Shown here piece by piece: positions 5,521 to 24,073 of a stretch of DNA of 24,073 bases. The notes below the pieces were generated by a model. The model saw nothing but the letters and a program-made list of their open reading frames with translations. It searched no databases and was not told the origin of the DNA. The translations under genes were made by a program, and so were the position numbers. The stretch's first letter is position 1; each line of letters opens with the position of its first letter. The DNA comes from a virus (Duplodnaviria > Heunggongvirae > Uroviricota > Caudoviricetes), in the IMG/VR virus record IMGVR_UViG_2681813321_000026, positions 1-24,073 of that record; one strand, 5' to 3'.

Positions 5521-5793
5521 TGTGCAGCTCCCGTGCTGATGAGATAATAATTTTGTGATGTGGTTTTCATGGATTCCCCCTCACATGGCTGGTGGCCTCC
5601 CCAAAGGCTGCCAGCCTCCCTTCTGATTCAGCTCCTCTGAAAAATCACTCTTCCAGGAAGAACCCTTTTCGTTTCTCAGCGCCTGAGCGCTTTGTACTAC
5701 CTTGCTGATACGGGCGTTTTTTTAAATTGCGCCCTTAAGACAGTGATCTACTTAACCAATGGATCTCTCCTGTTGGAAAAGACCCTATTCCTG

Positions 5794-5836
5794 CCCCAAC
5801 ACCCAATCCCCCCTTACCCCCCTTACCCTCTTCCCC
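5794..5836 (-). other. C-rich (plus) / G-rich (minus) tract with six runs of 3-6 G: potential G-quadruplex motif on the minus strand
   Basis: Plus strand ccccaacacccaatccccccttaccccccttaccctcttcccc; includes tandem ccccccTTA units. Lies in the 413-bp non-coding gap between the 102-aa ORF and the helicase gene. Confidence 0.4.
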
Positions 5837-5933
5837 ATAAAAACGTACTACTTCCCTAGTACACATGAGGAGTTGGGTCAGTTGGTTGCCAACCTGAACA
5901 GGCACCTTTAAGCCTGCTTCTGTTCGGGTACCT

Positions 5934-6242
5934 TTAAACCCGAAACAGTGAGGAGCGCGATTGCGATCCAGCCAGGGGAGGTTCGGCTGTATACCCCTGT
6001 AAAGCTCTGCCCTGATTTCTTACAAACAGGCGGAGCCTTGTGTTTGCTTCGTGCCTTGCTCTGTTCTCCTTGCGGAATGAAACAGGCTCAGCGTCAAAAG
6101 TGATTTCGTATACCTCCGCATATTTCAGGGCAACCTTCCGTCTCAGTGACGGAGGCAGCCCCTGTAACTGCTGCTGAATCCACTCTTCGTCTGCCTGGCA
6201 GTACCTAGATGGCATCTCTGTCTGAACGTAATTCTGGGACAT
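5934..6242 (-). CDS. Hypothetical protein (102 aa) in the cII/replication-initiator position
   Basis: ATG at 6242 with strong SD (GGGAGGTGA); overlaps the 3' end of the cro-like gene by 38 nt in another frame. No motif recognised. Confidence 0.55.
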   Translation of the reverse strand: MSQNYVQTEMPSRYCQADEEWIQQQLQGLPPSLRRKVALKYAEVYEITFDAEPVSFRKENRARHEANTRLRLFVRNQGRALQGYTAEPPLAGSQSRSSLFRV

Positions 6243-6492
6243 ACAAGCCCTTCACCTCCCCCGTGCGCGCTAAGCTTGGATGTGGAAAAAGCTCTGATAG
6301 GTCTGGCCGAAATTCATACGCTTGGATCTTTCCGTCGACAGCTGCAACCAATAACGGCACAAATTCTGGTGAAATCTTGTTCTTGCAGTTCAACCAATCG
6401 CAGACTGTTGACTGGGCCTTTCCGCATCGCTTGGCTAAGGCTTGCTGACTTCCAAGAATCTCAATAGCTTTCTCTATGGCTTTATGTTTCAT
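6205..6492 (-). CDS. Cro-like HTH regulator (Cro/CI-type, YdaS-like), 95 aa
   Basis: Start set to ATG at 6492 (MKHKAIEKAIEILGSQQALAKRCGKAQSTVCDW, HTH) with SD AGGAGA 7 nt upstream; ORF track start at 6543 is an upstream in-frame extension. Divergent from cI. Confidence 0.75.
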   Translation of the reverse strand: MKHKAIEKAIEILGSQQALAKRCGKAQSTVCDWLNCKNKISPEFVPLLVAAVDGKIQAYEFRPDLSELFPHPSLARTGEVKGLYVPELRSDRDAI

Positions 6493-6493
6493 A

Positions 6494-6578
6494 ATCGCAT
6501 CTCCTATTGAACGCATAATAACAACAGGAAAAGCGATATTCAACGTTAAACATAGAATATTTATCGGAAAGCCGATAA
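6494..6578. promoter_or_regulatory. OR-like divergent promoter/operator region between cro-like and cI genes
   Basis: Palindromic 14-mers ATCGCatctCCtAT (6494-6507) and ATCGGaaagCCGAT (6563-6576). Candidate minus-strand cro promoter TTGAAT-N17-TATTAT (-35 at 6543..6538, -10 at 6520..6515). Candidate plus-strand -10 TAGAAT at 6553-6558 with poor -35 (PRM-like). Confidence 0.5.
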
Positions 6579-6611
6579 ACTAGCCAAGATAGAGAGGGGA
6601 GGAAAATCGCA

Positions 6612-7304
6612 ATGACATTTTCAGAACGACTTGATTTAGCTATGCGCAACGCAAAATTTACGCAAGGTAGGCTGGCCAAAGAAGTGGGTATGGCTCAGTC
6701 CAGTGTTAATCAACTACTTAACAAAGCCAACGGTTCCAGAAAAACAGTCGAAATAGCAAAAGTTTTGGGCGTTAACCCGGAATGGCTCGCATCGGGTGTT
6801 GGCCCAATGGAAATCGTGACCTCTGCAGACTCACACCAAATACGTAACATTTCTGAAGATTGGGTTACTGATTCGTATGTCGTGGATGTTTTAGACATCA
6901 GATATAGTTGCGGACCTGGTAGTTATAACTCTGATTTTCCTGATATTGTCAGATCTATAGCGATAGAACCAGGATACGCATCAAGAGTTTTTGGCGGCAG
7001 ACCAGCATCAGCAATCAAAGCAATAAACGCCCACGGCGACAGTATGAAAGGCACAATAGACCCTGAAGACTTGGTATTTGTAGATGTATCAGTTCGCACA
7101 TTTAATGGTGATGGTATATACGCCTTTACATACTCTGGAACATCGCACATCAAAAGACTTCAAAAAATCAAAGATACTCTAACGGTGATATCTGACAACC
7201 CAGCTTACAAGGATTGGGCTATCGAACCGGAAGACTTCGAACAACTTCACATTGACGGAAAAGTAATTGTCAGTTGGCCTATGACACTACACCGTTTTGC
7301 ATAA
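6612..7304 (+). CDS. cI: CI-type prophage repressor (N-terminal XRE HTH, C-terminal S24 LexA-like peptidase domain)
   Basis: 230 aa; HTH QGRLAKEVGMAQSSVNQL; S24 catalytic motifs GDSM and downstream Lys; SD GGAGG upstream of ATG. Confidence 0.9.
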   Translation: MTFSERLDLAMRNAKFTQGRLAKEVGMAQSSVNQLLNKANGSRKTVEIAKVLGVNPEWLASGVGPMEIVTSADSHQIRNISEDWVTDSYVVDVLDIRYSCGPGSYNSDFPDIVRSIAIEPGYASRVFGGRPASAIKAINAHGDSMKGTIDPEDLVFVDVSVRTFNGDGIYAFTYSGTSHIKRLQKIKDTLTVISDNPAYKDWAIEPEDFEQLHIDGKVIVSWPMTLHRFA

Positions 7305-7322
7305 GCAAAAATCATTTAACCC

Positions 7323-7348
7323 GCCCACTCTTAAGTGGGCTTTTTTTT
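7323..7348 (+). terminator. Rho-independent terminator after cI
   Basis: Perfect 7-bp stem gcccact/agtgggc with 4-nt loop ctta followed by T8. Confidence 0.8.
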
Positions 7349-7356
7349 GGGAAAAA

Positions 7357-7398
7357 ATCGATAAACCGATTGACAGGTGAAATCGGTAAACCTATTAT
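7357..7398 (+). promoter_or_regulatory. PL-like promoter with two operator sites
   Basis: TTGACA (7370-7375), 17-nt spacer, TATTAT (7393-7398). Operator-like 14-mers ATCGAtaaaCCGAT (7357-7370, overlapping -35) and ATCGGtaaaCCtAT (7382-7395, overlapping spacer/-10), same family as the OR sites. Confidence 0.7.
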
Positions 7399-7447
7399 CT
7401 TGACATAGGTATCGAACTCACCAAAGCAATTATAGAGGATGAGAAAA

Positions 7448-7858
7448 ATGTCATCGTATATGGGATTACCAACAAATCAGCACGATGCTCTTGAGAATAT
7501 TCAGCTCTTAGTAGGGACTGGTGCACTACTGTATAGCAGCAATAACCCTGAGTTAATTGAACTTGCCAGCTCCATCCTGGCTGTAACTCAAAAATATAGC
7601 CTCACCGCGTCACGTTTATGCAAACAAAATTTAGCTATTAATTCCCAGAATCGGATTCGCACCCAACGCGAAACCTGCGGCTTAACAACCGCCGAACTCG
7701 CTAGGCTGCTCGATCTCGATGAAGAAATTATCATCCAGTGGGAGAGCGGAGAGTACGAACCAACCATCAGCATGCTTATCCCTCTGGCTAATGTTCTTGG
7801 CTGTGATCCAATGTTGTTATTGACTGATGCTTATAAACAAAATCAGGAGGAAGCATAA
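7448..7858 (+). CDS. Hypothetical protein with C-terminal XRE-family HTH (first gene of PL operon)
   Basis: Start set to ATG 7448 (SD GAGGA 8 nt upstream); track start 7439 has no spacing to the SD. C-terminal HTH LTTAELARLLDLDEEIIIQWESGEYEPTISMLIPLANVLG. Confidence 0.6.
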   Translation: MSSYMGLPTNQHDALENIQLLVGTGALLYSSNNPELIELASSILAVTQKYSLTASRLCKQNLAINSQNRIRTQRETCGLTTAELARLLDLDEEIIIQWESGEYEPTISMLIPLANVLGCDPMLLLTDAYKQNQEEA

Positions 7859-7859
7859 G

Positions 7860-8051
7860 ATGAAAATGTTCAAAGGCCTTACCAACGAACCGGAGACAAC
7901 TTTTCATCACATTGCCGTACTGCTTGAAGCGGGGTTAATCATTTCGGCTTCCGGTGATGAAGAATGTGATGAACTTTCGGATGATATCTTTTTACTGGCA
8001 CAACAATACGCCAGAAGCGCATGCGATGCATTTAAGGAGCAAAGAACATGA
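7860..8051 (+). CDS. Small acidic hypothetical protein (63 aa)
   Basis: ATG 7860 preceded by AGGAGG (9-nt spacing); track ORF 7827 is an in-frame upstream extension overlapping the previous gene. Confidence 0.55.
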   Translation: MKMFKGLTNEPETTFHHIAVLLEAGLIISASGDEECDELSDDIFLLAQQYARSACDAFKEQRT

Positions 8052-8239
8052 AAACTCCATTAAATATTCTTGAGGAAGTGGCAGCACAAATAAAAGAGAA
8101 TACATCAATGCTTGAATTTATATTTAAGAATTCGCCCGACTCAGGAGAGACAGACGATTATTTATGTTGCCTCATTCGCTCCATGAATAAAACCTGTGAA
8201 ATGGCTTACGCGTATATCGACACACTGCGCAACGAATAA
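8048..8239 (+). CDS. Small acidic hypothetical protein (63 aa)
   Basis: ATG overlaps stop of previous gene (ATGA coupling). Confidence 0.55.
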   Translation: MKTPLNILEEVAAQIKENTSMLEFIFKNSPDSGETDDYLCCLIRSMNKTCEMAYAYIDTLRNE

Positions 8240-8423
8240 AGAAAACTCAATAAACAATCACCCATAAAAACATAACGGTCTCTGGTCGGGAATTTCCACA
8301 ACCTGAAAATGGTGGTGATGCATGAAAAACAGAAGTGCTTATAAAACCGCATTATTAATGGCTAATGCAGGATACTGGTCAGTTGCAATACTGTTTCTCA
8401 GGAAAGCATACGGGAAATAACAA

Positions 8424-8783
8424 ATGACACATGAACCCATTAATACATATCGTCGCCGTATAGCTGTTGCGGCACTCCATCGAATAAAACGTAAAACAGG
8501 TGGTAATCTGCTTATTGTTGACCTTCCTGATGGGAACATTACGACCATAGAAATAACTGAACAGTTTATAAACCAGTTGCTGTTACGCTTCGAAGGTATT
8601 ACCCGTGGTGAATTGGGCCGGGTGGAGGGTGAAACCGAAATCCACACTGCATACCAGAATGCTATCGGGATTAATCAACATACTGAATACCTGACTGAAA
8701 CCGGAAAGTTAATTATAGACAACCTTTTTCAAGAGATTATTGATTACGCGAAAGAAAAATATATCAGCGGAGGAATTAACTGA
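8424..8783 (+). CDS. Hypothetical protein (119 aa)
   Basis: ORF with ATG start; stop overlaps start of next gene. No motif recognised. Confidence 0.5.
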   Translation: MTHEPINTYRRRIAVAALHRIKRKTGGNLLIVDLPDGNITTIEITEQFINQLLLRFEGITRGELGRVEGETEIHTAYQNAIGINQHTEYLTETGKLIIDNLFQEIIDYAKEKYISGGIN

Positions 8784-8998
8784 TGGCTAATTTATCCCCT
8801 GTATCTGTTGTGCACGAAAAAGTGCAGATCGTTATGACAATTGAAAATGGCCAAGTCACAGGTGTCTGCAAAGTCCGCGATGGCGAGCTGATTGCCAGCA
8901 TGGATACATTCATACGGCTGGCAGAAAGAGCGGGGTATCAGATAACAGCACCTGCTCAGGAGGAAACCGGTGGCATTAACAGCAACACGCATTCCTGA
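8783..8998 (+). CDS. Hypothetical protein (71 aa)
   Basis: ATG 8783 with GGAGGA 8 nt upstream, overlapping stop of previous gene. Confidence 0.55.
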   Translation: MANLSPVSVVHEKVQIVMTIENGQVTGVCKVRDGELIASMDTFIRLAERAGYQITAPAQEETGGINSNTHS

Positions 8999-9184
8999 GC
9001 GGATCCACCGGCAGGCATTGCAGGTCCTGTTGTTGTACCGATGCCGACGGATATTTCCGCATCGGATACAGCGCACCGGATATCTCAGTCTGAAGGTTAA
9101 CCGTCGCTGGCGGCTGTTATCGAAAGACGACGGCCGGAACTGGGAAGTAATGAGTCATGAACGTTATTCGGGAGAAATAAAGAA

Positions 9185-9577
9185 ATGATCGACAACCGCA
9201 CCGCCAGCACCATTGACCAGGCATTACAGAAACATGATACACCCGTCGGCCCGTTATTTTTTGTAACACGCCACGGAAGAACAAAAAAATGCCTCACCCG
9301 AAAAACGGCAATTCGTTACCTGGCATTCTTTATGACCACCCGCGCTTTTGAACGTTCAGGATTCCGACAACGCTATCCTGACAAGCGTTTTATCTTCAAC
9401 AGGAATGAGATATGGAAACGTGGAGAATCAACCACAGAGTATACCCGCGCACACCAGCGAACAATCAGACGACTGCGCAGACTCATCGCCAGGAAACAGT
9501 ATACAGAAAAATGGTTCAGAAAATATGACACATGGAGCGCCGGATATTACGAACTGATGGCAACAAAACCATTCTGA
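9185..9577 (+). CDS. Hypothetical basic protein (130 aa, Arg/Lys-rich C-terminus)
   Basis: ATG 9185 with GGGAGA upstream. No motif recognised. Confidence 0.5.
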   Translation: MIDNRTASTIDQALQKHDTPVGPLFFVTRHGRTKKCLTRKTAIRYLAFFMTTRAFERSGFRQRYPDKRFIFNRNEIWKRGESTTEYTRAHQRTIRRLRRLIARKQYTEKWFRKYDTWSAGYYELMATKPF

Positions 9578-9637
9578 CGTAAACGAAATTAACCATGACG
9601 CAATTAAATAAGGCAAGCCGAATACATCAGGAGGACC

Positions 9638-9826
9638 ATGAACATTTATTTCAGAATAGTTATATCACTGGCAATTATCACATGTATTTACGGATTAATC
9701 GTTCCGGCCCTCATATCAATGAAGGATACGGTAGCAGTGATTTCTGGCTTTGCTCTGGCGTGTCTGACCCCGCCCTGCATTTATGCCATTTATAAGGGTC
9801 TTTCTTTTTCTAAGGATAAAAGATGA
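9638..9826 (+). CDS. Small membrane protein (62 aa, two predicted TM helices)
   Basis: AGGAGGA upstream of ATG; two hydrophobic stretches; stop overlaps start of SPFH gene (ATGA). Confidence 0.55.
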   Translation: MNIYFRIVISLAIITCIYGLIVPALISMKDTVAVISGFALACLTPPCIYAIYKGLSFSKDKR

Positions 9827-10137
9827 AAAAATTACTTTTTGCTTTAGCCCTTGTTCTGCCGACCATTGGCCTTGTCGGTTGCGATCGCGTTGAGCCTGGT
9901 AATGTGGGCATCAAAGTAAACAAACTGGGCGACGATAAAGGCGTCGGTGAAGTGGTCGGTGTTGGGCGCTACTGGACGGGATGGAACACTGAGGTTTACA
10001 TCTTCCCGACCTTTAAGCAGATGAAGACCTACGATGATCCATTCAGTTTCCAGATGAGTGACGGTACAACCATCGGCTATCACATCGGCGTGGCCTACAA
10101 AGTTGATCCATCCAAAGTTACCACAGTCTTTCAGACC

Positions 10138-10167
<30 letters not shown>
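9823..10167 (+). pseudogene. Truncated copy of SPFH/band-7 lipoprotein gene (first 105 codons, then unrelated sequence after repeat boundary at 10137)
   Basis: Identical to the first 105 codons of the 275-aa gene at 19791-20618, then diverges and terminates after 9 foreign codons. Confidence 0.75.
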
Positions 10168-15158: not shown

Positions 15159-15761
15159 TAACAATGCAGCCCTGTCGGTCATCAATCCTCTGCTTAATGG
15201 CAATGACAATTATCCGACTTAAATCACAAATCAGACACATGACATAACAGAGTTTGCGAGGTAACACATCGTCCGGTTTCTTCCACCATCGCACCGGACC
15301 AGCGACCATGAGGGGACAACGCCGCGCTCCGTTTACGCGGTAAACCCCGGTGTGTATCGTTTTTGATTATCCCCGCACACTCTCGCAGAGGAGTCTCCCT
15401 GTCGGGCTGCGGTCTCTGTTAATGCAGGAATACGGCGACAATACCGCGCATGGATAATAAGGTCGCTCAACACACTGGCTGTAATTCAGCGGATACCATT
15501 CGGCATTTATCAGTATTCATCACACACTCAACGGTGAATTCTTCATGCGTGGCATTCACTTCATATGTTCGTGAATAACATTCAGTGCATTTACCTCTGA
15601 ACACCTCTTCAATCACTCTTCCAGGAAGAACCCTTTTCGTTTCTCAGCGCCTGAGCGCTTTGTACTACCTTGCTGATACGGGCGTTTTTTTAAATTGCGC
15701 CCTTAAGACAGTGATCTACTTAACCAATGGATCTCTCCTGTTGGAAAAGACCCTATTCCTG

Positions 15762-15804
15762 CCCCAACACCCAATCCCCCCTTACCCCCCTTACCCTCTT
15801 CCCC
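15762..15804 (-). other. Second copy of the C-rich/G-rich potential G-quadruplex tract
   Basis: Identical to 5794-5836. Confidence 0.4.
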
Positions 15805-15901
15805 ATAAAAACGTACTACTTCCCTAGTACACATGAGGAGTTGGGTCAGTTGGTTGCCAACCTGAACAGGCACCTTTAAGCCTGCTTCTGTTCGGGTACC
15901 T

Positions 15902-16210
15902 TTAAACCCGAAACAGTGAGGAGCGCGATTGCGATCCAGCCAGGGGAGGTTCGGCTGTATACCCCTGTAAAGCTCTGCCCTGATTTCTTACAAACAGGCG
16001 GAGCCTTGTGTTTGCTTCGTGCCTTGCTCTGTTCTCCTTGCGGAATGAAACAGGCTCAGCGTCAAAAGTGATTTCGTATACCTCCGCATATTTCAGGGCA
16101 ACCTTCCGTCTCAGTGACGGAGGCAGCCCCTGTAACTGCTGCTGAATCCACTCTTCGTCTGCCTGGCAGTACCTAGATGGCATCTCTGTCTGAACGTAAT
16201 TCTGGGACAT
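15902..16210 (-). CDS. Hypothetical protein (102 aa), copy 2
   Basis: Identical to 5934-6242. Confidence 0.55.
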   Translation of the reverse strand: MSQNYVQTEMPSRYCQADEEWIQQQLQGLPPSLRRKVALKYAEVYEITFDAEPVSFRKENRARHEANTRLRLFVRNQGRALQGYTAEPPLAGSQSRSSLFRV

Positions 16211-16460
16211 ACAAGCCCTTCACCTCCCCCGTGCGCGCTAAGCTTGGATGTGGAAAAAGCTCTGATAGGTCTGGCCGAAATTCATACGCTTGGATCTTTC
16301 CGTCGACAGCTGCAACCAATAACGGCACAAATTCTGGTGAAATCTTGTTCTTGCAGTTCAACCAATCGCAGACTGTTGACTGGGCCTTTCCGCATCGCTT
16401 GGCTAAGGCTTGCTGACTTCCAAGAATCTCAATAGCTTTCTCTATGGCTTTATGTTTCAT
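16173..16460 (-). CDS. Cro-like HTH regulator, copy 2
   Basis: Identical to 6205-6492. Confidence 0.75.
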   Translation of the reverse strand: MKHKAIEKAIEILGSQQALAKRCGKAQSTVCDWLNCKNKISPEFVPLLVAAVDGKIQAYEFRPDLSELFPHPSLARTGEVKGLYVPELRSDRDAI

Positions 16461-16461
16461 A

Positions 16462-16546
16462 ATCGCATCTCCTATTGAACGCATAATAACAACAGGAAAA
16501 GCGATATTCAACGTTAAACATAGAATATTTATCGGAAAGCCGATAA
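16462..16546. promoter_or_regulatory. OR-like promoter/operator region, copy 2
   Basis: Identical to 6494-6578. Confidence 0.5.
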
Positions 16547-16579
16547 ACTAGCCAAGATAGAGAGGGGAGGAAAATCGCA

Positions 16580-17272
16580 ATGACATTTTCAGAACGACTT
16601 GATTTAGCTATGCGCAACGCAAAATTTACGCAAGGTAGGCTGGCCAAAGAAGTGGGTATGGCTCAGTCCAGTGTTAATCAACTACTTAACAAAGCCAACG
16701 GTTCCAGAAAAACAGTCGAAATAGCAAAAGTTTTGGGCGTTAACCCGGAATGGCTCGCATCGGGTGTTGGCCCAATGGAAATCGTGACCTCTGCAGACTC
16801 ACACCAAATACGTAACATTTCTGAAGATTGGGTTACTGATTCGTATGTCGTGGATGTTTTAGACATCAGATATAGTTGCGGACCTGGTAGTTATAACTCT
16901 GATTTTCCTGATATTGTCAGATCTATAGCGATAGAACCAGGATACGCATCAAGAGTTTTTGGCGGCAGACCAGCATCAGCAATCAAAGCAATAAACGCCC
17001 ACGGCGACAGTATGAAAGGCACAATAGACCCTGAAGACTTGGTATTTGTAGATGTATCAGTTCGCACATTTAATGGTGATGGTATATACGCCTTTACATA
17101 CTCTGGAACATCGCACATCAAAAGACTTCAAAAAATCAAAGATACTCTAACGGTGATATCTGACAACCCAGCTTACAAGGATTGGGCTATCGAACCGGAA
17201 GACTTCGAACAACTTCACATTGACGGAAAAGTAATTGTCAGTTGGCCTATGACACTACACCGTTTTGCATAA
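16580..17272 (+). CDS. cI: CI-type prophage repressor, copy 2
   Basis: Identical to 6612-7304. Confidence 0.9.
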   Translation: MTFSERLDLAMRNAKFTQGRLAKEVGMAQSSVNQLLNKANGSRKTVEIAKVLGVNPEWLASGVGPMEIVTSADSHQIRNISEDWVTDSYVVDVLDIRYSCGPGSYNSDFPDIVRSIAIEPGYASRVFGGRPASAIKAINAHGDSMKGTIDPEDLVFVDVSVRTFNGDGIYAFTYSGTSHIKRLQKIKDTLTVISDNPAYKDWAIEPEDFEQLHIDGKVIVSWPMTLHRFA

Positions 17273-17290
17273 GCAAAAATCATTTAACCC

Positions 17291-17316
17291 GCCCACTCTT
17301 AAGTGGGCTTTTTTTT
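17291..17316 (+). terminator. Rho-independent terminator after cI, copy 2
   Basis: Identical to 7323-7348. Confidence 0.8.
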
Positions 17317-17324
17317 GGGAAAAA

Positions 17325-17366
17325 ATCGATAAACCGATTGACAGGTGAAATCGGTAAACCTATTAT
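17325..17366 (+). promoter_or_regulatory. PL-like promoter with operators, copy 2
   Basis: Identical to 7357-7398. Confidence 0.7.
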
Positions 17367-17415
17367 CTTGACATAGGTATCGAACTCACCAAAGCAATTA
17401 TAGAGGATGAGAAAA

Positions 17416-17826
17416 ATGTCATCGTATATGGGATTACCAACAAATCAGCACGATGCTCTTGAGAATATTCAGCTCTTAGTAGGGACTGGTGCACTACTGT
17501 ATAGCAGCAATAACCCTGAGTTAATTGAACTTGCCAGCTCCATCCTGGCTGTAACTCAAAAATATAGCCTCACCGCGTCACGTTTATGCAAACAAAATTT
17601 AGCTATTAATTCCCAGAATCGGATTCGCACCCAACGCGAAACCTGCGGCTTAACAACCGCCGAACTCGCTAGGCTGCTCGATCTCGATGAAGAAATTATC
17701 ATCCAGTGGGAGAGCGGAGAGTACGAACCAACCATCAGCATGCTTATCCCTCTGGCTAATGTTCTTGGCTGTGATCCAATGTTGTTATTGACTGATGCTT
17801 ATAAACAAAATCAGGAGGAAGCATAA
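17416..17826 (+). CDS. Hypothetical protein with C-terminal XRE HTH, copy 2
   Basis: Identical to 7448-7858. Confidence 0.6.
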   Translation: MSSYMGLPTNQHDALENIQLLVGTGALLYSSNNPELIELASSILAVTQKYSLTASRLCKQNLAINSQNRIRTQRETCGLTTAELARLLDLDEEIIIQWESGEYEPTISMLIPLANVLGCDPMLLLTDAYKQNQEEA

Positions 17827-17827
17827 G

Positions 17828-18019
17828 ATGAAAATGTTCAAAGGCCTTACCAACGAACCGGAGACAACTTTTCATCACATTGCCGTACTGCTTGAAGCGG
17901 GGTTAATCATTTCGGCTTCCGGTGATGAAGAATGTGATGAACTTTCGGATGATATCTTTTTACTGGCACAACAATACGCCAGAAGCGCATGCGATGCATT
18001 TAAGGAGCAAAGAACATGA
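17828..18019 (+). CDS. Small acidic hypothetical protein (63 aa), copy 2
   Basis: Identical to 7860-8051. Confidence 0.55.
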   Translation: MKMFKGLTNEPETTFHHIAVLLEAGLIISASGDEECDELSDDIFLLAQQYARSACDAFKEQRT

Positions 18020-18207
18020 AAACTCCATTAAATATTCTTGAGGAAGTGGCAGCACAAATAAAAGAGAATACATCAATGCTTGAATTTATATTTAAGAATT
18101 CGCCCGACTCAGGAGAGACAGACGATTATTTATGTTGCCTCATTCGCTCCATGAATAAAACCTGTGAAATGGCTTACGCGTATATCGACACACTGCGCAA
18201 CGAATAA
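18016..18207 (+). CDS. Small acidic hypothetical protein (63 aa), copy 2
   Basis: Identical to 8048-8239. Confidence 0.55.
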   Translation: MKTPLNILEEVAAQIKENTSMLEFIFKNSPDSGETDDYLCCLIRSMNKTCEMAYAYIDTLRNE

Positions 18208-18391
18208 AGAAAACTCAATAAACAATCACCCATAAAAACATAACGGTCTCTGGTCGGGAATTTCCACAACCTGAAAATGGTGGTGATGCATGAAAAACAG
18301 AAGTGCTTATAAAACCGCATTATTAATGGCTAATGCAGGATACTGGTCAGTTGCAATACTGTTTCTCAGGAAAGCATACGGGAAATAACAA

Positions 18392-18751
18392 ATGACACAT
18401 GAACCCATTAATACATATCGTCGCCGTATAGCTGTTGCGGCACTCCATCGAATAAAACGTAAAACAGGTGGTAATCTGCTTATTGTTGACCTTCCTGATG
18501 GGAACATTACGACCATAGAAATAACTGAACAGTTTATAAACCAGTTGCTGTTACGCTTCGAAGGTATTACCCGTGGTGAATTGGGCCGGGTGGAGGGTGA
18601 AACCGAAATCCACACTGCATACCAGAATGCTATCGGGATTAATCAACATACTGAATACCTGACTGAAACCGGAAAGTTAATTATAGACAACCTTTTTCAA
18701 GAGATTATTGATTACGCGAAAGAAAAATATATCAGCGGAGGAATTAACTGA
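18392..18751 (+). CDS. Hypothetical protein (119 aa), copy 2
   Basis: Identical to 8424-8783. Confidence 0.5.
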   Translation: MTHEPINTYRRRIAVAALHRIKRKTGGNLLIVDLPDGNITTIEITEQFINQLLLRFEGITRGELGRVEGETEIHTAYQNAIGINQHTEYLTETGKLIIDNLFQEIIDYAKEKYISGGIN

Positions 18752-18966
18752 TGGCTAATTTATCCCCTGTATCTGTTGTGCACGAAAAAGTGCAGATCGT
18801 TATGACAATTGAAAATGGCCAAGTCACAGGTGTCTGCAAAGTCCGCGATGGCGAGCTGATTGCCAGCATGGATACATTCATACGGCTGGCAGAAAGAGCG
18901 GGGTATCAGATAACAGCACCTGCTCAGGAGGAAACCGGTGGCATTAACAGCAACACGCATTCCTGA
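18751..18966 (+). CDS. Hypothetical protein (71 aa), copy 2
   Basis: Identical to 8783-8998. Confidence 0.55.
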   Translation: MANLSPVSVVHEKVQIVMTIENGQVTGVCKVRDGELIASMDTFIRLAERAGYQITAPAQEETGGINSNTHS

Positions 18967-19152
18967 GCGGATCCACCGGCAGGCATTGCAGGTCCTGTTG
19001 TTGTACCGATGCCGACGGATATTTCCGCATCGGATACAGCGCACCGGATATCTCAGTCTGAAGGTTAACCGTCGCTGGCGGCTGTTATCGAAAGACGACG
19101 GCCGGAACTGGGAAGTAATGAGTCATGAACGTTATTCGGGAGAAATAAAGAA

Positions 19153-19545
19153 ATGATCGACAACCGCACCGCCAGCACCATTGACCAGGCATTACAGAAA
19201 CATGATACACCCGTCGGCCCGTTATTTTTTGTAACACGCCACGGAAGAACAAAAAAATGCCTCACCCGAAAAACGGCAATTCGTTACCTGGCATTCTTTA
19301 TGACCACCCGCGCTTTTGAACGTTCAGGATTCCGACAACGCTATCCTGACAAGCGTTTTATCTTCAACAGGAATGAGATATGGAAACGTGGAGAATCAAC
19401 CACAGAGTATACCCGCGCACACCAGCGAACAATCAGACGACTGCGCAGACTCATCGCCAGGAAACAGTATACAGAAAAATGGTTCAGAAAATATGACACA
19501 TGGAGCGCCGGATATTACGAACTGATGGCAACAAAACCATTCTGA
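19153..19545 (+). CDS. Hypothetical basic protein (130 aa), copy 2
   Basis: Identical to 9185-9577. Confidence 0.5.
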   Translation: MIDNRTASTIDQALQKHDTPVGPLFFVTRHGRTKKCLTRKTAIRYLAFFMTTRAFERSGFRQRYPDKRFIFNRNEIWKRGESTTEYTRAHQRTIRRLRRLIARKQYTEKWFRKYDTWSAGYYELMATKPF

Positions 19546-19605
19546 CGTAAACGAAATTAACCATGACGCAATTAAATAAGGCAAGCCGAATACATCAGGA
19601 GGACC

Positions 19606-19794
19606 ATGAACATTTATTTCAGAATAGTTATATCACTGGCAATTATCACATGTATTTACGGATTAATCGTTCCGGCCCTCATATCAATGAAGGATACGGT
19701 AGCAGTGATTTCTGGCTTTGCTCTGGCGTGTCTGACCCCGCCCTGCATTTATGCCATTTATAAGGGTCTTTCTTTTTCTAAGGATAAAAGATGA
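19606..19794 (+). CDS. Small two-TM membrane protein (62 aa), copy 2
   Basis: Identical to 9638-9826. Confidence 0.55.
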   Translation: MNIYFRIVISLAIITCIYGLIVPALISMKDTVAVISGFALACLTPPCIYAIYKGLSFSKDKR

Positions 19795-20618
19795 AAAAAT
19801 TACTTTTTGCTTTAGCCCTTGTTCTGCCGACCATTGGCCTTGTCGGTTGCGATCGCGTTGAGCCTGGTAATGTGGGCATCAAAGTAAACAAACTGGGCGA
19901 CGATAAAGGCGTCGGTGAAGTGGTCGGTGTTGGGCGCTACTGGACGGGATGGAACACTGAGGTTTACATCTTCCCGACCTTTAAGCAGATGAAGACCTAC
20001 GATGATCCATTCAGTTTCCAGATGAGTGACGGTACAACCATCGGCTATCACATCGGCGTGGCCTACAAAGTTGATCCATCCAAAGTTACCACAGTCTTTC
20101 AGACCTACCGCAAAGGCGTGGACGACATTACCGACACCGACCTGCGCCAGAAGATAGCCGACGCACTCAACCGACTGGCCAGCAAAATGACCACCGACAA
20201 ATTTATCGACGGCGGCAAGTCTGAGCTGCTGGATGCAGCTCTTAAAGACATTCAGGAAGAAATGACGCCCATCGGTATTCAGGTAATGAGCCTCTCATAT
20301 GTGGGTAAGCCGGAGTACCCACCTACTGTTATCGACAGCATTAATGCCAAAGTCACGGCGAACCAGAAAACCCTGCAACGCGAGCAGGAAGTAAAACAGC
20401 GCGAAGCGGAAGCCAACATGTTGCGCGCGGAAGCTGCCGGACAGGCAGATGCGATTCGCACAAAAGCCCAGGCCGAAGCCGATGCTATTCGTTTACGCGG
20501 TGAAGCTCTGCGCCAGAACCCCGGTGTTATGGAGCTGGAAGCCATCAACAAGTGGAACGGTACACTGCCGCAATACATGACCAGCGGTGCCAACACACCA
20601 TTTATTCAGGTTAAGTAA
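19791..20618 (+). CDS. SPFH/band-7 (HflC/stomatin-like) domain lipoprotein, 275 aa
   Basis: Lipoprotein signal MKKLLFALALVLPTIGLVGC (lipobox LVGC); SPFH-like core and C-terminal Ala/Glu/Gln/Arg-rich coiled-coil segment (REQEVKQREAEANMLRAEAAGQADAIRTKAQAEADAIRLRGEAL) typical of HflC/QmcA-type proteins; SD AAGGA upstream. Confidence 0.8.
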   Translation: MKKLLFALALVLPTIGLVGCDRVEPGNVGIKVNKLGDDKGVGEVVGVGRYWTGWNTEVYIFPTFKQMKTYDDPFSFQMSDGTTIGYHIGVAYKVDPSKVTTVFQTYRKGVDDITDTDLRQKIADALNRLASKMTTDKFIDGGKSELLDAALKDIQEEMTPIGIQVMSLSYVGKPEYPPTVIDSINAKVTANQKTLQREQEVKQREAEANMLRAEAAGQADAIRTKAQAEADAIRLRGEALRQNPGVMELEAINKWNGTLPQYMTSGANTPFIQVK

Positions 20619-20661
20619 TACATATGCCCGGTATTACACGCCGGGCTGTCTGGAGATAAAA

Positions 20662-21411
20662 ATGAATATTGTAACCATCAACAACAAACAGTTTCCGGTA
20701 ATCGAATATCGCGGTCAGCGTGTTGTGACATTTGCAATAATTGATGACGTCCACCAGCGCCCGGAAGGTACCGCCCGTGCTGCGTTTAACCGCAACCGTT
20801 CTCACTTTATCGAAGGGGTGGATTTTCTTGAAATGACTGCGGACGTAATACGTACGGAGTCACTTTCTGATGCCTTTGCCGCGCGAACTGCCAAAGGGAT
20901 CATTCTTTTCGAGTCTGGTTACCTGATGTTGACGAAGCCTTTTAACGATGCTCTTGCATGGCAGGTTCAGCGCGAACTGGTTAACAGCTATTTCCGAACT
21001 CACGCGCCGCTGACGGAAATGGAGATGATCGCTGCAATGGCCGCCGATGCCGTTCGCCAGCAGAAGCGCCTGAGTCATGTTGAAGAGAAGATCGAAACGG
21101 TCACCAAAGCTGTGGAGAACATCAAACGCGGCACAATGCGCACCGGATATGTCGGTTACCGCCAGGTGGTAGCCAAAAGCGGAATGAGTGACGCCAAGTG
21201 TCGGAATCTGGTCAACGCCTACCACATCCCTACCGACACGCACGAATTTATGACTCCGGACGGTCTGTTGTCTCGCAGGGCTGTCGTCGAGCTTGAGACA
21301 TTTATGGCGGCGTTCCACCAAATGATGTCAGAGGCTGAACCACGCGGCACACGCTGGTATCACCCGAAGATGGGGCTTTTTCAGGTAATCGGATGGGAGG
21401 ATAAAGCATGA
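20662..21411 (+). CDS. Phage antirepressor-like protein with N-terminal ORF6N/KilA-N-type domain (249 aa)
   Basis: Start set to ATG 20662 (SD GGAG 6 nt upstream; track start 20587 is an upstream extension overlapping the SPFH gene end). N-terminus MNIVTINNKQFPVIEYRGQRVVTFAIIDDVHQRPEGTARAAFNRNRSHFIEGVDFLE resembles ORF6N antirepressor domains. Confidence 0.6.
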   Translation: MNIVTINNKQFPVIEYRGQRVVTFAIIDDVHQRPEGTARAAFNRNRSHFIEGVDFLEMTADVIRTESLSDAFAARTAKGIILFESGYLMLTKPFNDALAWQVQRELVNSYFRTHAPLTEMEMIAAMAADAVRQQKRLSHVEEKIETVTKAVENIKRGTMRTGYVGYRQVVAKSGMSDAKCRNLVNAYHIPTDTHEFMTPDGLLSRRAVVELETFMAAFHQMMSEAEPRGTRWYHPKMGLFQVIGWEDKA

Positions 21412-21976
21412 TCATCCAGTCAAAACTTATTCGCGCCGCTCTGGTGTGCGCTGCTAAAAACGACGTTCGTTATTACCTGAACGGTCTTCACATCACGCCA
21501 AAACATATTGAGGCAACCAATGGTTTCGTAGCACTGCGCATGACTCACGGCATCCGGACGAAGAAAAACATCATTGTCCAGTTCGAAGGTGGCGTCCCGG
21601 CCAAAGCCGAAACGACAGAGCTGATTTTTAGTAAAGAGCCGATCCTGTTCATCGCGACCAGTTTCAGCGCCGGCTGTCCATTACCGGCATTAAATTGGTG
21701 GACGGTTGTTTTCCGGATTTGGAACGCATCATTCCGAAAAAATTTGACCTCTGTACACACCCGGTGATCCAGGCGGGTTACCTGAGTTATCCAGAGAAGA
21801 TGTTTGGTCGTGAGCGTAAATTTATTCCCGTCCAGTTACGTTCCTCCGGTGACGGGCAAGCGGTCAGAATTCAGTTTGATTCCATCATCAACTCAATGTA
21901 TGGCAATCCTGAATTTGTTGTGATGCCTTGTCGTGATCATGGCGATTTCAATGTGGCTCAGGAGCATCCGGAATGA
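21408..21976 (+). pseudogene. DnaN (beta sliding clamp) domain II-III-like gene interrupted by a -1 frameshift near 21672-21676
   Basis: Frame-0 ORF 21408-21767 begins MIIQSKLIRAALVCAAKNDVRYYLNGLHI...ATNGFVALR (compare E. coli DnaN RLIEATQFSMAHQDVRYYLNGM...ATDGHRLAV). Frame-2 ORF open from 21635 to 21976 reads ...IKLVDGCFPDLERIIPKK...VVMPCRD (compare DnaN SKLVDGRFPDYRRVLPK...VVMPMRL). No SD or ATG for the second frame; ATG 21408 overlaps the antirepressor stop. Confidence 0.5.
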
Positions 21977-22011
21977 AAATCGAATACCAGGACGCCGCAG
22001 GAGGTGAATCA

Positions 22012-22095
22012 ATGAGCTGGCCTGATGCAATCGTAACTCTGGGGGTGGTATTCGCAGTAGCGTTTGTTGTGTTCTCAATTTGTCGATGGGGATAA
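22012..22095 (+). CDS. Small hydrophobic peptide (27 aa; 40 aa if started at coupled ATG 21973)
   Basis: Strong SD AGGAGGT 7 nt upstream of ATG 22012; translation MSWPDAIVTLGVVFAVAFVVFSICRWG is a single TM helix. An in-frame ATG at 21973 overlaps the stop of the upstream gene. Confidence 0.35.
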   Translation: MSWPDAIVTLGVVFAVAFVVFSICRWG

Positions 22096-22099
22096 CCAC

Positions 22100-22342
22100 A
22101 TGTTCGCTTTGATTCAACGCGGTCAGATATACACGGACAGAGCCGGATACCCCGTGGTGATTACTCGCATCACTGAGCACTCAGTGTTCTTTCGACGGAT
22201 GGACGGACGATCCGGGCGGGTACGCATTGGTGAGTTAAACTGCCTGTTCGAACATATTGACCACCAGGAGTACCGCAAAATTCTCGCGGACACTGAGCAG
22301 GAAAAGCACCTGAAAAAATTACGAGCCATAAAAAGGAAGTAA
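22100..22342 (+). CDS. Hypothetical protein (80 aa)
   Basis: ATG 22100 with GGGGA 7 nt upstream; track start 22064 is a TTG upstream extension. Confidence 0.5.
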   Translation: MFALIQRGQIYTDRAGYPVVITRITEHSVFFRRMDGRSGRVRIGELNCLFEHIDHQEYRKILADTEQEKHLKKLRAIKRK

Positions 22343-22345
22343 AGA

Positions 22346-22480
22346 ATGAATAAAGCATTTGAACGATGGGTCCACCAGCGTTACGGCAATCGCTATGACC
22401 TGACGCGAGATGTTGACGGCTTCTACTGTCGTGAAGTTGTGAAGCGAATGTTTGAAGTGTGGTGCCACTGCCGTGGATGA
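22346..22480 (+). CDS. Hypothetical small Cys-containing protein (44 aa)
   Basis: ATG 22346 with AAGGAAG upstream; MNKAFERWVHQRYGNRYDLTRDVDGFYCREVVKRMFEVWCHCRG; below track size cutoff. Confidence 0.35.
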   Translation: MNKAFERWVHQRYGNRYDLTRDVDGFYCREVVKRMFEVWCHCRG

Positions 22481-22786: not shown

Positions 22787-24073
22787 ATGAGTAACGCATC
22801 ATACCCGACAGGCGTTGAAAACCATGGAGGATCACTCCGTATATGGTTTCACTATAATGGCAAACGTGTCAGAGAAAACCTCGGTGTTCCTGACACAGCC
22901 AAAAACCGGAAGATCGCTGGTGAACTTCGCACTTCCGTTTGTTTTGCAATCAGAATGGGGAGTTTCGACTACGCCGCGCAGTTCCCTAATTCCCCTAACC
23001 TGAAACACTTTGGTCTGGGAAAAAGAGAGATAACCGTTAAGGCACTTTCGGAAAAATGGTTGGACCTTAAGAAAATTGAGATTTGTGCGAATGCACTTAA
23101 TCGTTACCAGTCAGTAATTAAAAACATGTTGCCTATGTTGGGTGAGAAAAAACTGGTTTCATCCATAACAAAAGAGGATTTACTTTTCGCAAGGAGAGAT
23201 TTGTTGACCGGTTACCAAAAGCTTTCTAATGGAAAGATTTCTTCCATAAAAGGGCGCTCAGTGGTCACAGTAAACTACTATATGACAACCATAGCTGGAA
23301 TGTTTCAATTTGCAACAGATAATGGTTATACCTCAGGAAACCCATTTAACGGTCTGGCACCCTTAAAAAAGTCCAAGGTAAAACCAGATCCTCTCACCCG
23401 TGACGAATTTATTCGTTTTATTGAAGCTTGCCGTCATCAACAAACAAAAAACCTGTGGATTCTCGCTGTATACACGGGTATTCGTCACGGGGAGCTGGTA
23501 TCGCTGGCATGGGAAGATATAGATCTTAAAGCAAGGACTATAACCATCCGTAGGAATTATACAAAACTTGGCGAATTCACTCCACCAAAAACCGATGCTG
23601 GCACCGGAAGGACAATTCATCTGGTTCAACCAGCTATTGATGCTCTTAAAAGTCAGGCGGAAATGACCATGCTTGGAAAGCAACATTCTGTAGAGGTAAA
23701 GCAGAGGGAATATGGGAGAAGTACTGTGCATAAATGCACTTTTGTTTTTAGTCCTCAGGTAATAAAACAGCGGCAGTTTTCCGGACCGCACTATAAGGTT
23801 GACTCCATCAGGGAGTCATGGACAAGTATCTTAAAACGCGCAGGTCTGAGACACAGAAAATCGTACCAATCCAGGCATACTTATGCATGCTGGTCACTTG
23901 CCGCTGGAGCTAATCCTAGTTTTATCGCAAGCCAGATGGGCCACACAAACGCACAAATGGTATTCAATGTTTACGGAGCATGGATGAAAGACAACAATCA
24001 CGAACAGATAGAACTCCTTAACAAAAGACTATCTGAAAGTGTCCCATGTATGCCCCATAAGAAAGCTGGGTAA
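22787..24073 (+). CDS. int: Tyrosine-type site-specific integrase (428 aa)
   Basis: SD GGGAGG upstream; C-terminal catalytic region with RHGEL, SRHTYACW, HTNAQMVFNVYGAW (catalytic Tyr) typical of tyrosine recombinases. Last prophage gene before the expected attachment site beyond the window. Confidence 0.9.
   Translation: MSNASYPTGVENHGGSLRIWFHYNGKRVRENLGVPDTAKNRKIAGELRTSVCFAIRMGSFDYAAQFPNSPNLKHFGLGKREITVKALSEKWLDLKKIEICANALNRYQSVIKNMLPMLGEKKLVSSITKEDLLFARRDLLTGYQKLSNGKISSIKGRSVVTVNYYMTTIAGMFQFATDNGYTSGNPFNGLAPLKKSKVKPDPLTRDEFIRFIEACRHQQTKNLWILAVYTGIRHGELVSLAWEDIDLKARTITIRRNYTKLGEFTPPKTDAGTGRTIHLVQPAIDALKSQAEMTMLGKQHSVEVKQREYGRSTVHKCTFVFSPQVIKQRQFSGPHYKVDSIRESWTSILKRAGLRHRKSYQSRHTYACWSLAAGANPSFIASQMGHTNAQMVFNVYGAWMKDNNHEQIELLNKRLSESVPCMPHKKAG

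Follow-up and report, generated by a model that had tools for sequence, protein, structure and literature searches.

A phage SPFH lipoprotein with a linked or fused two-transmembrane partner: a candidate membrane scaffold in a lambdoid prophage and its relatives

SPFH proteins, including HflK/C, the prohibitins, stomatins, flotillins and erlins, are understood as cages that fence off patches of membrane and control proteases and channels. What might a phage do with a protein of this kind? The question is raised by a pair of genes in a 24,073-nucleotide stretch of Caudoviricetes DNA (IMG/VR record IMGVR_UViG_2681813321_000026, positions 1 to 24,073; the window, in what follows), which is a lambdoid prophage. 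The first gene of the pair (19606-19794, + strand) encodes a protein of 62 amino acids (aa) with two predicted transmembrane (TM) segments, and the second (19791-20618, + strand) encodes a 275-aa lipoprotein with an SPFH/Band-7 domain. Taken alone, the SPFH gene of the window is unremarkable: it has been annotated before and belongs to a phage family already in the catalogues. The main new result of this analysis is its partner, the small two-TM protein, which is encoded by a linked gene or fused to the SPFH lipoprotein itself. Indeed, phages of very different lifestyles and hosts carry a compact, lipid-anchored version of the SPFH protein together with a two-TM partner, either separate or fused.

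The first-pass annotation of the window had known of no characterised phage SPFH lipoprotein with the role it proposed, and searches of the full-text literature agree, yielding remarks in genome papers together with a single study, on the Pasteurella protein PM0222; no experiment on the role of an SPFH lipoprotein in a phage was found there. A recent paper states that the reason for the presence of such a lipoprotein in a phage 'remains unclear'. Similarly, we found no paper describing the two protein families to which the pair belongs, phrog_200 and phrog_1130, as a linked or fused module. A mention of 'band 7' in a paper on phage phiCbK was discarded, since it refers to a gel band and not to the protein family.

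A two-transmembrane protein linked or fused to the SPFH lipoprotein

The open reading frame (ORF) list contains both genes, and their overlap, which the first-pass annotation had described as an ATGA shared by a 62-aa two-TM ORF and a 275-aa lipoprotein gene, can be read directly from the sequence: the upstream gene ends in AAG GAT AAA AGA TGA, and the ATG of the SPFH gene lies at 19791. Each gene of the pair has its own Shine-Dalgarno sequence. The ribosome-binding site of the small gene, AGGAGG (19598-19603), lies 5 nt 5' of its ATG (AGGAGG-N5-ATG, 19598-19608), and AAGGA precedes the ATG of the SPFH gene, while the stop/start overlap itself favours co-translation of the two proteins. In profile searches the SPFH protein is a member of phrog_200 ('lipoprotein', 1e-114) and the small protein a member of phrog_1130 ('membrane protein', 1.5e-23), so that the pair combines both family matches with adjacency. 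The RefSeq counterparts are WP_001028879.1 ('hypothetical protein') for the small protein and WP_000734576.1 ('SPFH domain-containing protein') for the large one. The same genes are carried by E. coli E110019, in a locus 99.8% identical over window positions 15611-22476, where the alignment falls into two pieces because of an inserted IS3 element. Since both proteins match established phage families, and since their pairing is conserved in distantly related phages, these comparisons confirm at the level of sequence that the gene pair goes beyond chance.

The small protein contains two hydrophobic segments, as judged by a Kyte-Doolittle script of our own rather than by a dedicated TM predictor, followed by a basic C-terminus (KDKR), and is predicted to adopt an N-in/C-in topology. 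The loop between the two helices carries the motif P23-A-L-I-S27-M-K-D-T. In an alignment of the family, P23 is invariant, S27 and G37 are nearly invariant, and the loop takes the general form G-x-x-x-P-x-L-I-S-x-x-D-T. A search against Pfam returned no family for this protein at E<=0.1. Small two-TM proteins are encoded immediately upstream of the SPFH gene, and overlapping it, in P88 (67 aa), in Pylas (61 aa, with the annotation '2 TMDs N in C in'), in Maja (71 aa) and in ORM_20 (69 aa). A hidden Markov model (HMM) of the small-protein family finds all four of these partners and, in addition, gp235 of phage 4MG (E 2e-17), which is encoded two genes upstream of the 4MG SPFH gene; gp84 of phiEa21-4 is matched weakly.

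The linkage was then measured in a more diverse set of viruses. A scan of viral contigs with the window protein first gave only loci that were 97-100% identical, and the scan was therefore rerun starting from the ORM_20 protein; a protein search with a profile built from nine phages brought no gain in diversity over the first search. The resulting sample consists of 80 environmental viral loci with SPFH proteins 43-68% identical to that of ORM_20, 73 of them non-redundant. The lipobox is kept in 75 of the 80. A TM ORF lies upstream on the same strand in 59 of the 73 non-redundant loci, with two TM segments in 54 of these 59, and most such ORFs overlap the start of the SPFH gene by 1-35 nt. The full signature, a TM segment, the loop motif P-x-L-[IVF]-S-[AS]-x-[SDN] and a second TM segment, was found upstream in 63/80 loci.

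In some family members the two proteins are one. Among the top 150 cluster representatives of the SPFH family, approximately 82 possess a signal peptide and a lipobox, 24 have a plain N-terminal TM anchor without a lipobox, a sign that the anchors are interchangeable, and 23 have a long N-terminal extension. In 15 of these 23 the extension contains the hairpin and its loop motif, joined in frame to the SPFH domain that follows; 13 of these 15 retain the lipobox. The predicted topology of such a fusion is in-out-in-out, the last crossing being a helix like that of a signal peptide, which would therefore place the SPFH domain outside the cytoplasm, in the periplasm. These in-frame fusions suggest that the small protein and the SPFH protein are tied together functionally. 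Representatives with the fusion include P0002, P0162, P0168, P0170, P0180, P0182-P0184, P0202 and P0203. The internal lipobox found in most of them raises the question of whether signal peptidase II cleaves there or whether translation can begin at an internal start codon. When MAFFT was used to align the small proteins with the fusion P0002, their rows were set against its signal peptide and SPFH domain and not against its hairpin.

The locus is also mosaic. Across lambdoid, P2-like (P88) and P1-like phages, the DNA coding for the mature SPFH protein retains 86-92% nucleotide (nt) identity. Divergence is seen in the signal peptide and in the small gene, whose product in the window is 18% identical in aa sequence to that of P88. 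The mosaic boundary in P88 and the P1-like phages falls at the lipobox, corresponding to window positions 19839-19844 and codon 17 of the SPFH gene.

Sequence, predicted fold and distribution of the SPFH lipoprotein

The first-pass annotation had described the larger protein as an SPFH/band-7 lipoprotein with a coiled coil like that of HflC/QmcA, and most of this description stands. The N-terminus, MKKLLFALALVLPTIGLVGC followed by DRVE, reads as a signal peptide (residues 1-19) with a lipobox L-V-G-C, the lipidation site Cys20 and, at position +2, Asp21. The profile search that the annotation had called for gave a clear match to Pfam Band_7 (PF01145) over residues 22-208 (8e-31; 107.9 bits against a cut-off of 23.6). 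An AlphaFold2 monomer model, generated from an alignment of 24 sequences (mean predicted local distance difference test score, pLDDT, 76.8), shows strands at residues 19-94, helices at 96-161, a strand at 163-175, a single helix at 178-242, a short helix and a low-confidence tail. In this model the SPFH domain covers approximately residues 22-175 and the long helix 65 residues. The protein thus combines a profile match above the curated cut-off, an alpha/beta fold followed by a long helix, and an N-terminal membrane anchor in the form of a predicted lipobox, as is characteristic of the SPFH/Band 7 superfamily. The C-terminal tail is conserved (KWNG-LP-Y...PF), and in the alignment of nine phage SPFH proteins the residues C20, K254, W255, G257 and P260 are invariant; such a tail, modelled at low confidence, is compatible with the cap element of a ring or cage.

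Structural comparison using Foldseek placed the model close to erlin1/2, HflK/C, prohibitin and stomatin, all within approximately two orders of magnitude of one another (E 1e-12 to 1e-10), followed by flotillin, major vault protein and QmcA (E 1e-8 to 1e-6); all of these fold matches share 14-18% identity with the phage protein. A stomatin-aquaporin complex is also among them. The solved full-length complexes of these SPFH proteins are all large rings or cages, and a homo-oligomeric cage is for this reason the default expectation for the phage protein. A sequence search against solved structures gave HflK as the sole match (E 2e-4, residues 114-240). The likeness to HflC as such was not upheld, since the protein scores 25.4 bits against the NCBIfam HflC model TIGR01932 (cut-off 134.4) and 23.4 against the HflK model TIGR01933 (cut-off 159.4). 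On these cut-offs an HflC orthologue is ruled out. Other features of HflC/HflK are likewise missing: the phage protein is a lipoprotein with no TM anchor, the SPFH gene is single, and its neighbour encodes a 62-aa hairpin protein. The window protein can thus be assigned, from sequence, to SPFH at the superfamily level only.

A tblastn search identified the SPFH lipoprotein family in 423 phage records, 387 of them with full-length genes, including members of the Schitoviridae, Vequintavirinae, Ounavirinae and Bruynoghevirus, phiCbK-like phages, jumbo phages, Lak phages and tailed viruses of Halorubrum. In an exhaustive search, 227 clusters formed at 50% identity passed E<1e-30 and 964 passed E<1e-10; this is a large family, and most of it is viral in the collections covered. 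SPFH folds are present in giant eukaryotic viruses too. The SPFH proteins of phages of E. coli and of Ochrobactrum are approximately 40% identical and share the invariant motifs. Temperate carriers include phiP27, Stx phages, the 186-like P88 and P1-like phage-plasmids. Other carriers belong to lineages which we take to be strictly lytic: N4-like Pylas and vB_EamP-S6, rV5-like 4MG, LUZ24-like TL, Felix O1-like phiEa21-4, phiCbK and the Bcepfunavirus Maja. In all six of the lytic lineages examined, the SPFH gene lies among early or DNA-metabolism genes, with neighbours coding for RNA polymerase, dUTPase, thymidylate synthase, DNA polymerase and nucleotide pyrophosphohydrolase, and never in a lysis cassette or structural module. 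In P88 the pair is located in the early lytic operon, between a cox-like regulator and a replication gene, and in the P1-like phage vB_EcoM-Ro157c2YLVW (2784-3828) it lies among tRNA genes in a variable region between dmt and a primase/helicase gene. Its behaviour in P1-like phages is that of a mobile cassette of two genes. The SPFH gene is present in roughly a tenth of complete E. coli genomes (535/5,426), and 198 places are on plasmids, most of them of approximately 90-100 kb among the matches listed.

The early-left operon and a repeated segment in the window

The position of the pair in the window suggests when it is expressed. A gene for a CI-type repressor (16580-17272, + strand), the presumed regulator of the left operon, encodes a helix-turn-helix (HTH) domain together with Peptidase_S24. 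In Pfam the latter is matched at 7.5e-17, and HTH_19, HTH_3 and Phage_CI_repr are matched weakly, all below the Pfam cut-offs; in E. coli E110019 the counterpart is annotated as a LexA family regulator. The repressor transcript appears to end at a hairpin followed by a T-run resembling an intrinsic terminator (17291-17308, + strand). The candidate early-left promoter, TTGACA-17-TATTAT (17338-17366, + strand), which matches 11 of 12 consensus positions, begins 30 nt beyond it and is flanked and overlapped by two operator-like 14-mers, ATCGATAAACCGAT (17325-17338) and ATCGGTAAACCTAT (17350-17363). The shared motif, ATCGRNAARCCKAT, occurs at 17325, at 17350 and again at 16531-16544, in the interval that separates the cro-like gene from the repressor gene. 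In the whole window it has 6 matches, 3 in each copy of the repeat described below, as compared with 0.27 expected, and none of 100 shuffles reached 6. From the left promoter, + strand ORFs run uninterrupted to the integrase gene at 22787, and a crude consensus scan predicted neither a promoter nor a terminator on this strand between the left promoter and the pair. The layout of a prophage-expressed moron, with a promoter and a terminator of its own, was not seen either, the same scan finding no promoter-like site at 19545-19606 and no + strand terminator after 20618. The promoter, the shared operator motif and the repressor support the claim of a CI-controlled left operon, as far as motifs go, and it is plausible that the pair belongs to a repressor-controlled early-left operon. 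The further claim, that it occupies the position of lambda cIII, is right insofar as the pair lies inside the left operon and holds only in that loose sense. A search for a CIII-type Pfam family in five ORFs (19153-19545, 19606-19794, 19791-20618, 20662-21411 and 21408-21767) found none.

Other genes of the operon were noted in passing. The first gene past the left promoter (17407-17826) codes for a 139-aa HTH_3 protein that matches phrog_4836, 'CII-like regulator', and not an N-type antiterminator; it has weak matches, confined to the HTH, to the PADLOC RmrA and PDC-M64 models. A protein with a ParE-like toxin domain (Pfam ParE_like, 3e-17) is encoded at 18938-19156, and its gene overlaps the end of a 71-aa ORF (18751-18966) that has no family match and could be an antitoxin. 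Beyond the pair, 8 nt past the SPFH stop codon, a GC-rich hairpin (GCCCGG-N9-CCGGGC, 20626-20646) with no T-run separates the SPFH gene from the next gene (20662-21411) and might affect the stability or processing of the RNA. This next gene encodes an ORF6N-domain protein (Pfam, 1.6e-12) that matches the anti-repressor family phrog_1726 (7e-70). Next come two overlapping ORFs, 21408-21767 and 21695-21976, the first with a weak beta-clamp match (E 0.065). The segment 21408-21976 is probably a frameshifted gene, because its counterpart is annotated as 'frameshifted' in E110019 and as a 'beta clamp domain-containing protein' in other genomes.

Part of this region is present twice. A perfect direct repeat of 4,495 bp, missed by the first-pass annotation, makes positions 5643-10137 identical to 15611-20105. 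The repeat spans the immunity region, with the cro-like gene, the repressor, the left promoter and the left operon as far as codon 105 of the SPFH gene, so that it covers 19606-20105 of the locus, including the first 315 bp of the SPFH gene. The first copy accordingly contains a second, identical small two-TM gene (9638-9826, + strand), with an identical HMM match, and a truncated SPFH gene of 105 codons (9823-10137, + strand), which breaks at the repeat boundary. The truncated ORF continues to 10167 (114 aa) into antisense portal DNA, the portal match starting at 10139. The 5.5-kb segment between the copies consists, from 10139 to approximately 15451, of DNA resembling the portal, terminase and Nu1 genes of lambda, read from the opposite strand. 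The junctions of the repeat (10137/10138 and ~15610/15611) are spanned in none of 5,426 complete E. coli genomes. The resulting A-R-B-R-C layout is probably an assembly mis-join through the repeat, or else a rare rearrangement, and a tandem prophage as the source of the repeat is not supported. The full-length SPFH gene is real, because it is contiguous in E110019 and in other genomes.

A candidate membrane scaffold and its alternatives

Our preferred reading, which we hold tentatively and at something short of even confidence, is that the pair constitutes a split, lipid-anchored SPFH scaffold that acts in lytic growth, stabilising or compartmentalising the inner membrane until programmed lysis. 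On loss of the repressor, the early-left promoter would transcribe both genes. The 62-aa protein would form an N-in/C-in hairpin in the inner membrane, with only its short P-x-L-I-S-x-x-D-T loop reaching the periplasm. The 275-aa protein would be exported, lipidated at Cys20 and kept on the periplasmic face of the inner membrane. An Asp at position +2 is the rule by which E. coli lipoproteins avoid the Lol system, and the inner-membrane location is suggested by this residue together with the alpha-helical partner and the fusions. By analogy with the solved full-length SPFH complexes, the lipoprotein would form a homo-oligomeric ring or cage in which the SPFH domains sit at the membrane, the 65-residue helices build the wall and the C-terminal tail provides the cap. 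Within it the small protein may serve as a membrane-embedded anchor or client, a part that is played in HflK/C by the N-terminal TM helices and in QmcA-YbbJ by NfeD. Such a cage could fence off or stabilise patches of the inner membrane, keeping the cell intact and energised until programmed lysis. A role in lytic growth is suggested by the places where the module is found, among early or DNA-metabolism genes in lytic phages and within lytic early operons in temperate phages that are unrelated; on this reading the SPFH lipoprotein is not specifically a regulator of lysogeny.

Several points weigh against this scaffold reading. Cage formation is argued by analogy alone, and the C-terminal 25 residues, the putative cap, are modelled at low confidence. 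With Arg at +3, the Asp at +2 may retain the protein less effectively, Ser or Thr stands at +2 in many members of the family, and in some hosts the protein may be targeted to the outer membrane. The partnership has gaps as well: the motif signature is absent from 17/80 diverse loci, and the small-protein HMM has no match in TL or phiCbK, where the protein encoded upstream has one TM segment (TL) or three (phiCbK). The promoter scan was a crude consensus search that a weak constitutive promoter could escape. Finally, membrane stabilisation is the least specific role imaginable. In a more specific version, which we regard as doubtful, the pair would be a pan-viral envelope module, extending from coliphage prophages to N4-like, rV5-like, phiCbK-like and haloarchaeal viruses. 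During lytic growth it would build an SPFH cage of viral origin on the outer surface of the cytoplasmic membrane, and this cage would have a specific client, perhaps a membrane protease of the host, a channel or the machinery by which competing phages enter. If true, this would be a first functional class of membrane-microdomain scaffolds made by viruses.

Entry machinery is also central to an alternative, raised in another form by the first-pass annotation, that we consider unlikely but worth weighing, in which the pair serves superinfection exclusion or defence in lytic growth, blocking DNA entry by a second phage or its penetration of peptidoglycan or membrane, in the manner of T4 Imm/Sp. 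Imm of T4 is itself a small two-TM early protein, and Llp of T5 is an exclusion lipoprotein of a lytic phage. The predicted location at the periplasmic face of the inner membrane, the small two-TM partner, the early or middle position of the genes in lytic phages, and a cassette-like mobility reflected in the sharing of the mature domain by three phage groups (86-92% nt identity, as given above) would all suit this function. Against it, neither protein matches PADLOC-DB models at E<=0.1, and the conservation between E. coli and Ochrobactrum phages (~40% identity) exceeds that usual for arms-race proteins. Moreover, a cage would cover only small patches of membrane, and the promoter scan gave no sign of expression in a lysogen, which counts against the classical, prophage-expressed version.

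The first-pass annotation had itself offered the hypothesis that the lipoprotein mimics HflC and tunes FtsH and thereby CII-type lysogeny factors. Such an HflC/HflK mimic would bind or cage the host protease, or poison the HflKC cage, and so alter the turnover of FtsH substrates. The match to HflK among solved structures, the place of the HflK/C cages among the top fold matches, an SPFH domain predicted to face the periplasm, as that of HflK/C does, and a gene in the left operon, where lambda has cIII, are in keeping with this idea. Yet the protein falls far under the HflC/HflK cut-offs and matches erlin and prohibitin equally well at 14-18% identity, it is encoded by a lone SPFH gene and has no TM helix, and no relationship to cIII or cII was found. 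The lysogeny version is further weakened because the family occurs in lytic lineages, which have no lysis-lysogeny decision to make, and in haloarchaeal viruses, whose hosts are not known to have FtsH. Taken together, this leaves the FtsH reading improbable. Nor is it new, since the same suggestion had been raised, without data, in the genome papers on phages CSP3 and AH14b.

A lysis-timing device, in which the two-TM protein is holin-like or pore-forming and an SPFH cage restrains or organises it, is very improbable. The small protein does resemble a class II holin in size (~60-70 aa), its two TM segments, N-in/C-in topology and basic C-terminus, stomatin-type SPFH proteins regulate channels, and a stomatin-aquaporin complex is among the fold matches. 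However, the pair never lies in the lysis cassette of the phages examined, and in an E. coli prophage that is nearly identical, a class II holin, a lysozyme and a lysis protein are encoded at another place; furthermore, Pfam and PHROG profiles give no holin family match, and the fusions suit an anchor better than a free pore. As a component of the lysis cassette, the pair is ruled out by gene context. A lysogenic-conversion or virulence lipoprotein like PM0222, the only experimentally studied prophage SPFH protein found, is scarcely credible despite the presence of the gene in Stx phages and prophages of pathogenic E. coli, since its operon position predicts repression in the lysogen and the family is common in lytic environmental phages unconnected with animal hosts.

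The choice among these readings is directly testable: the genes are short, the motif of the partner is sharp, and both lytic and temperate carriers infect laboratory hosts. The answer would bear on what phages do with the host envelope in the interval from infection to lysis.

Comparison with known systems shows both likenesses and differences. T4 Imm/Sp and T5 Llp are early-expressed, small inner-membrane or lipoprotein factors that act at the envelope; they have no sequence or fold relationship to the phage pair and are not SPFH scaffolds. PM0222, an HflK/C-like protein of a lambda-like prophage of P. multocida, is alike, by description only, in being a prophage-encoded SPFH protein, but differs in having been studied as a host-directed virulence factor, one that is released in vesicles and activates TLR1/2. 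HflK/HflC (PDB 7vhp, 7wi3, 9cz2) share with the phage protein an SPFH domain followed by a long wall helix, the domain lying on the periplasmic side of the inner membrane in HflK/C and predicted to lie there in the phage protein; they differ in sequence (17-18% identity), in anchorage, which is by an N-terminal TM helix in HflK/C and by lipid in the phage protein, and in composition, the phage having one SPFH gene and a 62-aa hairpin partner where the host has a K/C pair. From SPFH-NfeD pairs (QmcA-YbbJ, PDB 8z5g; archaeal stomatin-NfeD) the phage pair differs in its partner, which at 62 aa has no NfeD/OB-fold domain and is too short to hold one, and the phage SPFH protein is again distinguished by its lipid anchor. 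It is also predicted to be exported, whereas QmcA faces the cytoplasm. In organization, however, the two systems are alike: QmcA is a fold match of the phage protein, and in both a co-directional small multi-TM gene lies beside the SPFH gene, overlapping it by ATGA here and adjoining it in approximately 80% of the diverse loci, and is sometimes fused to it.

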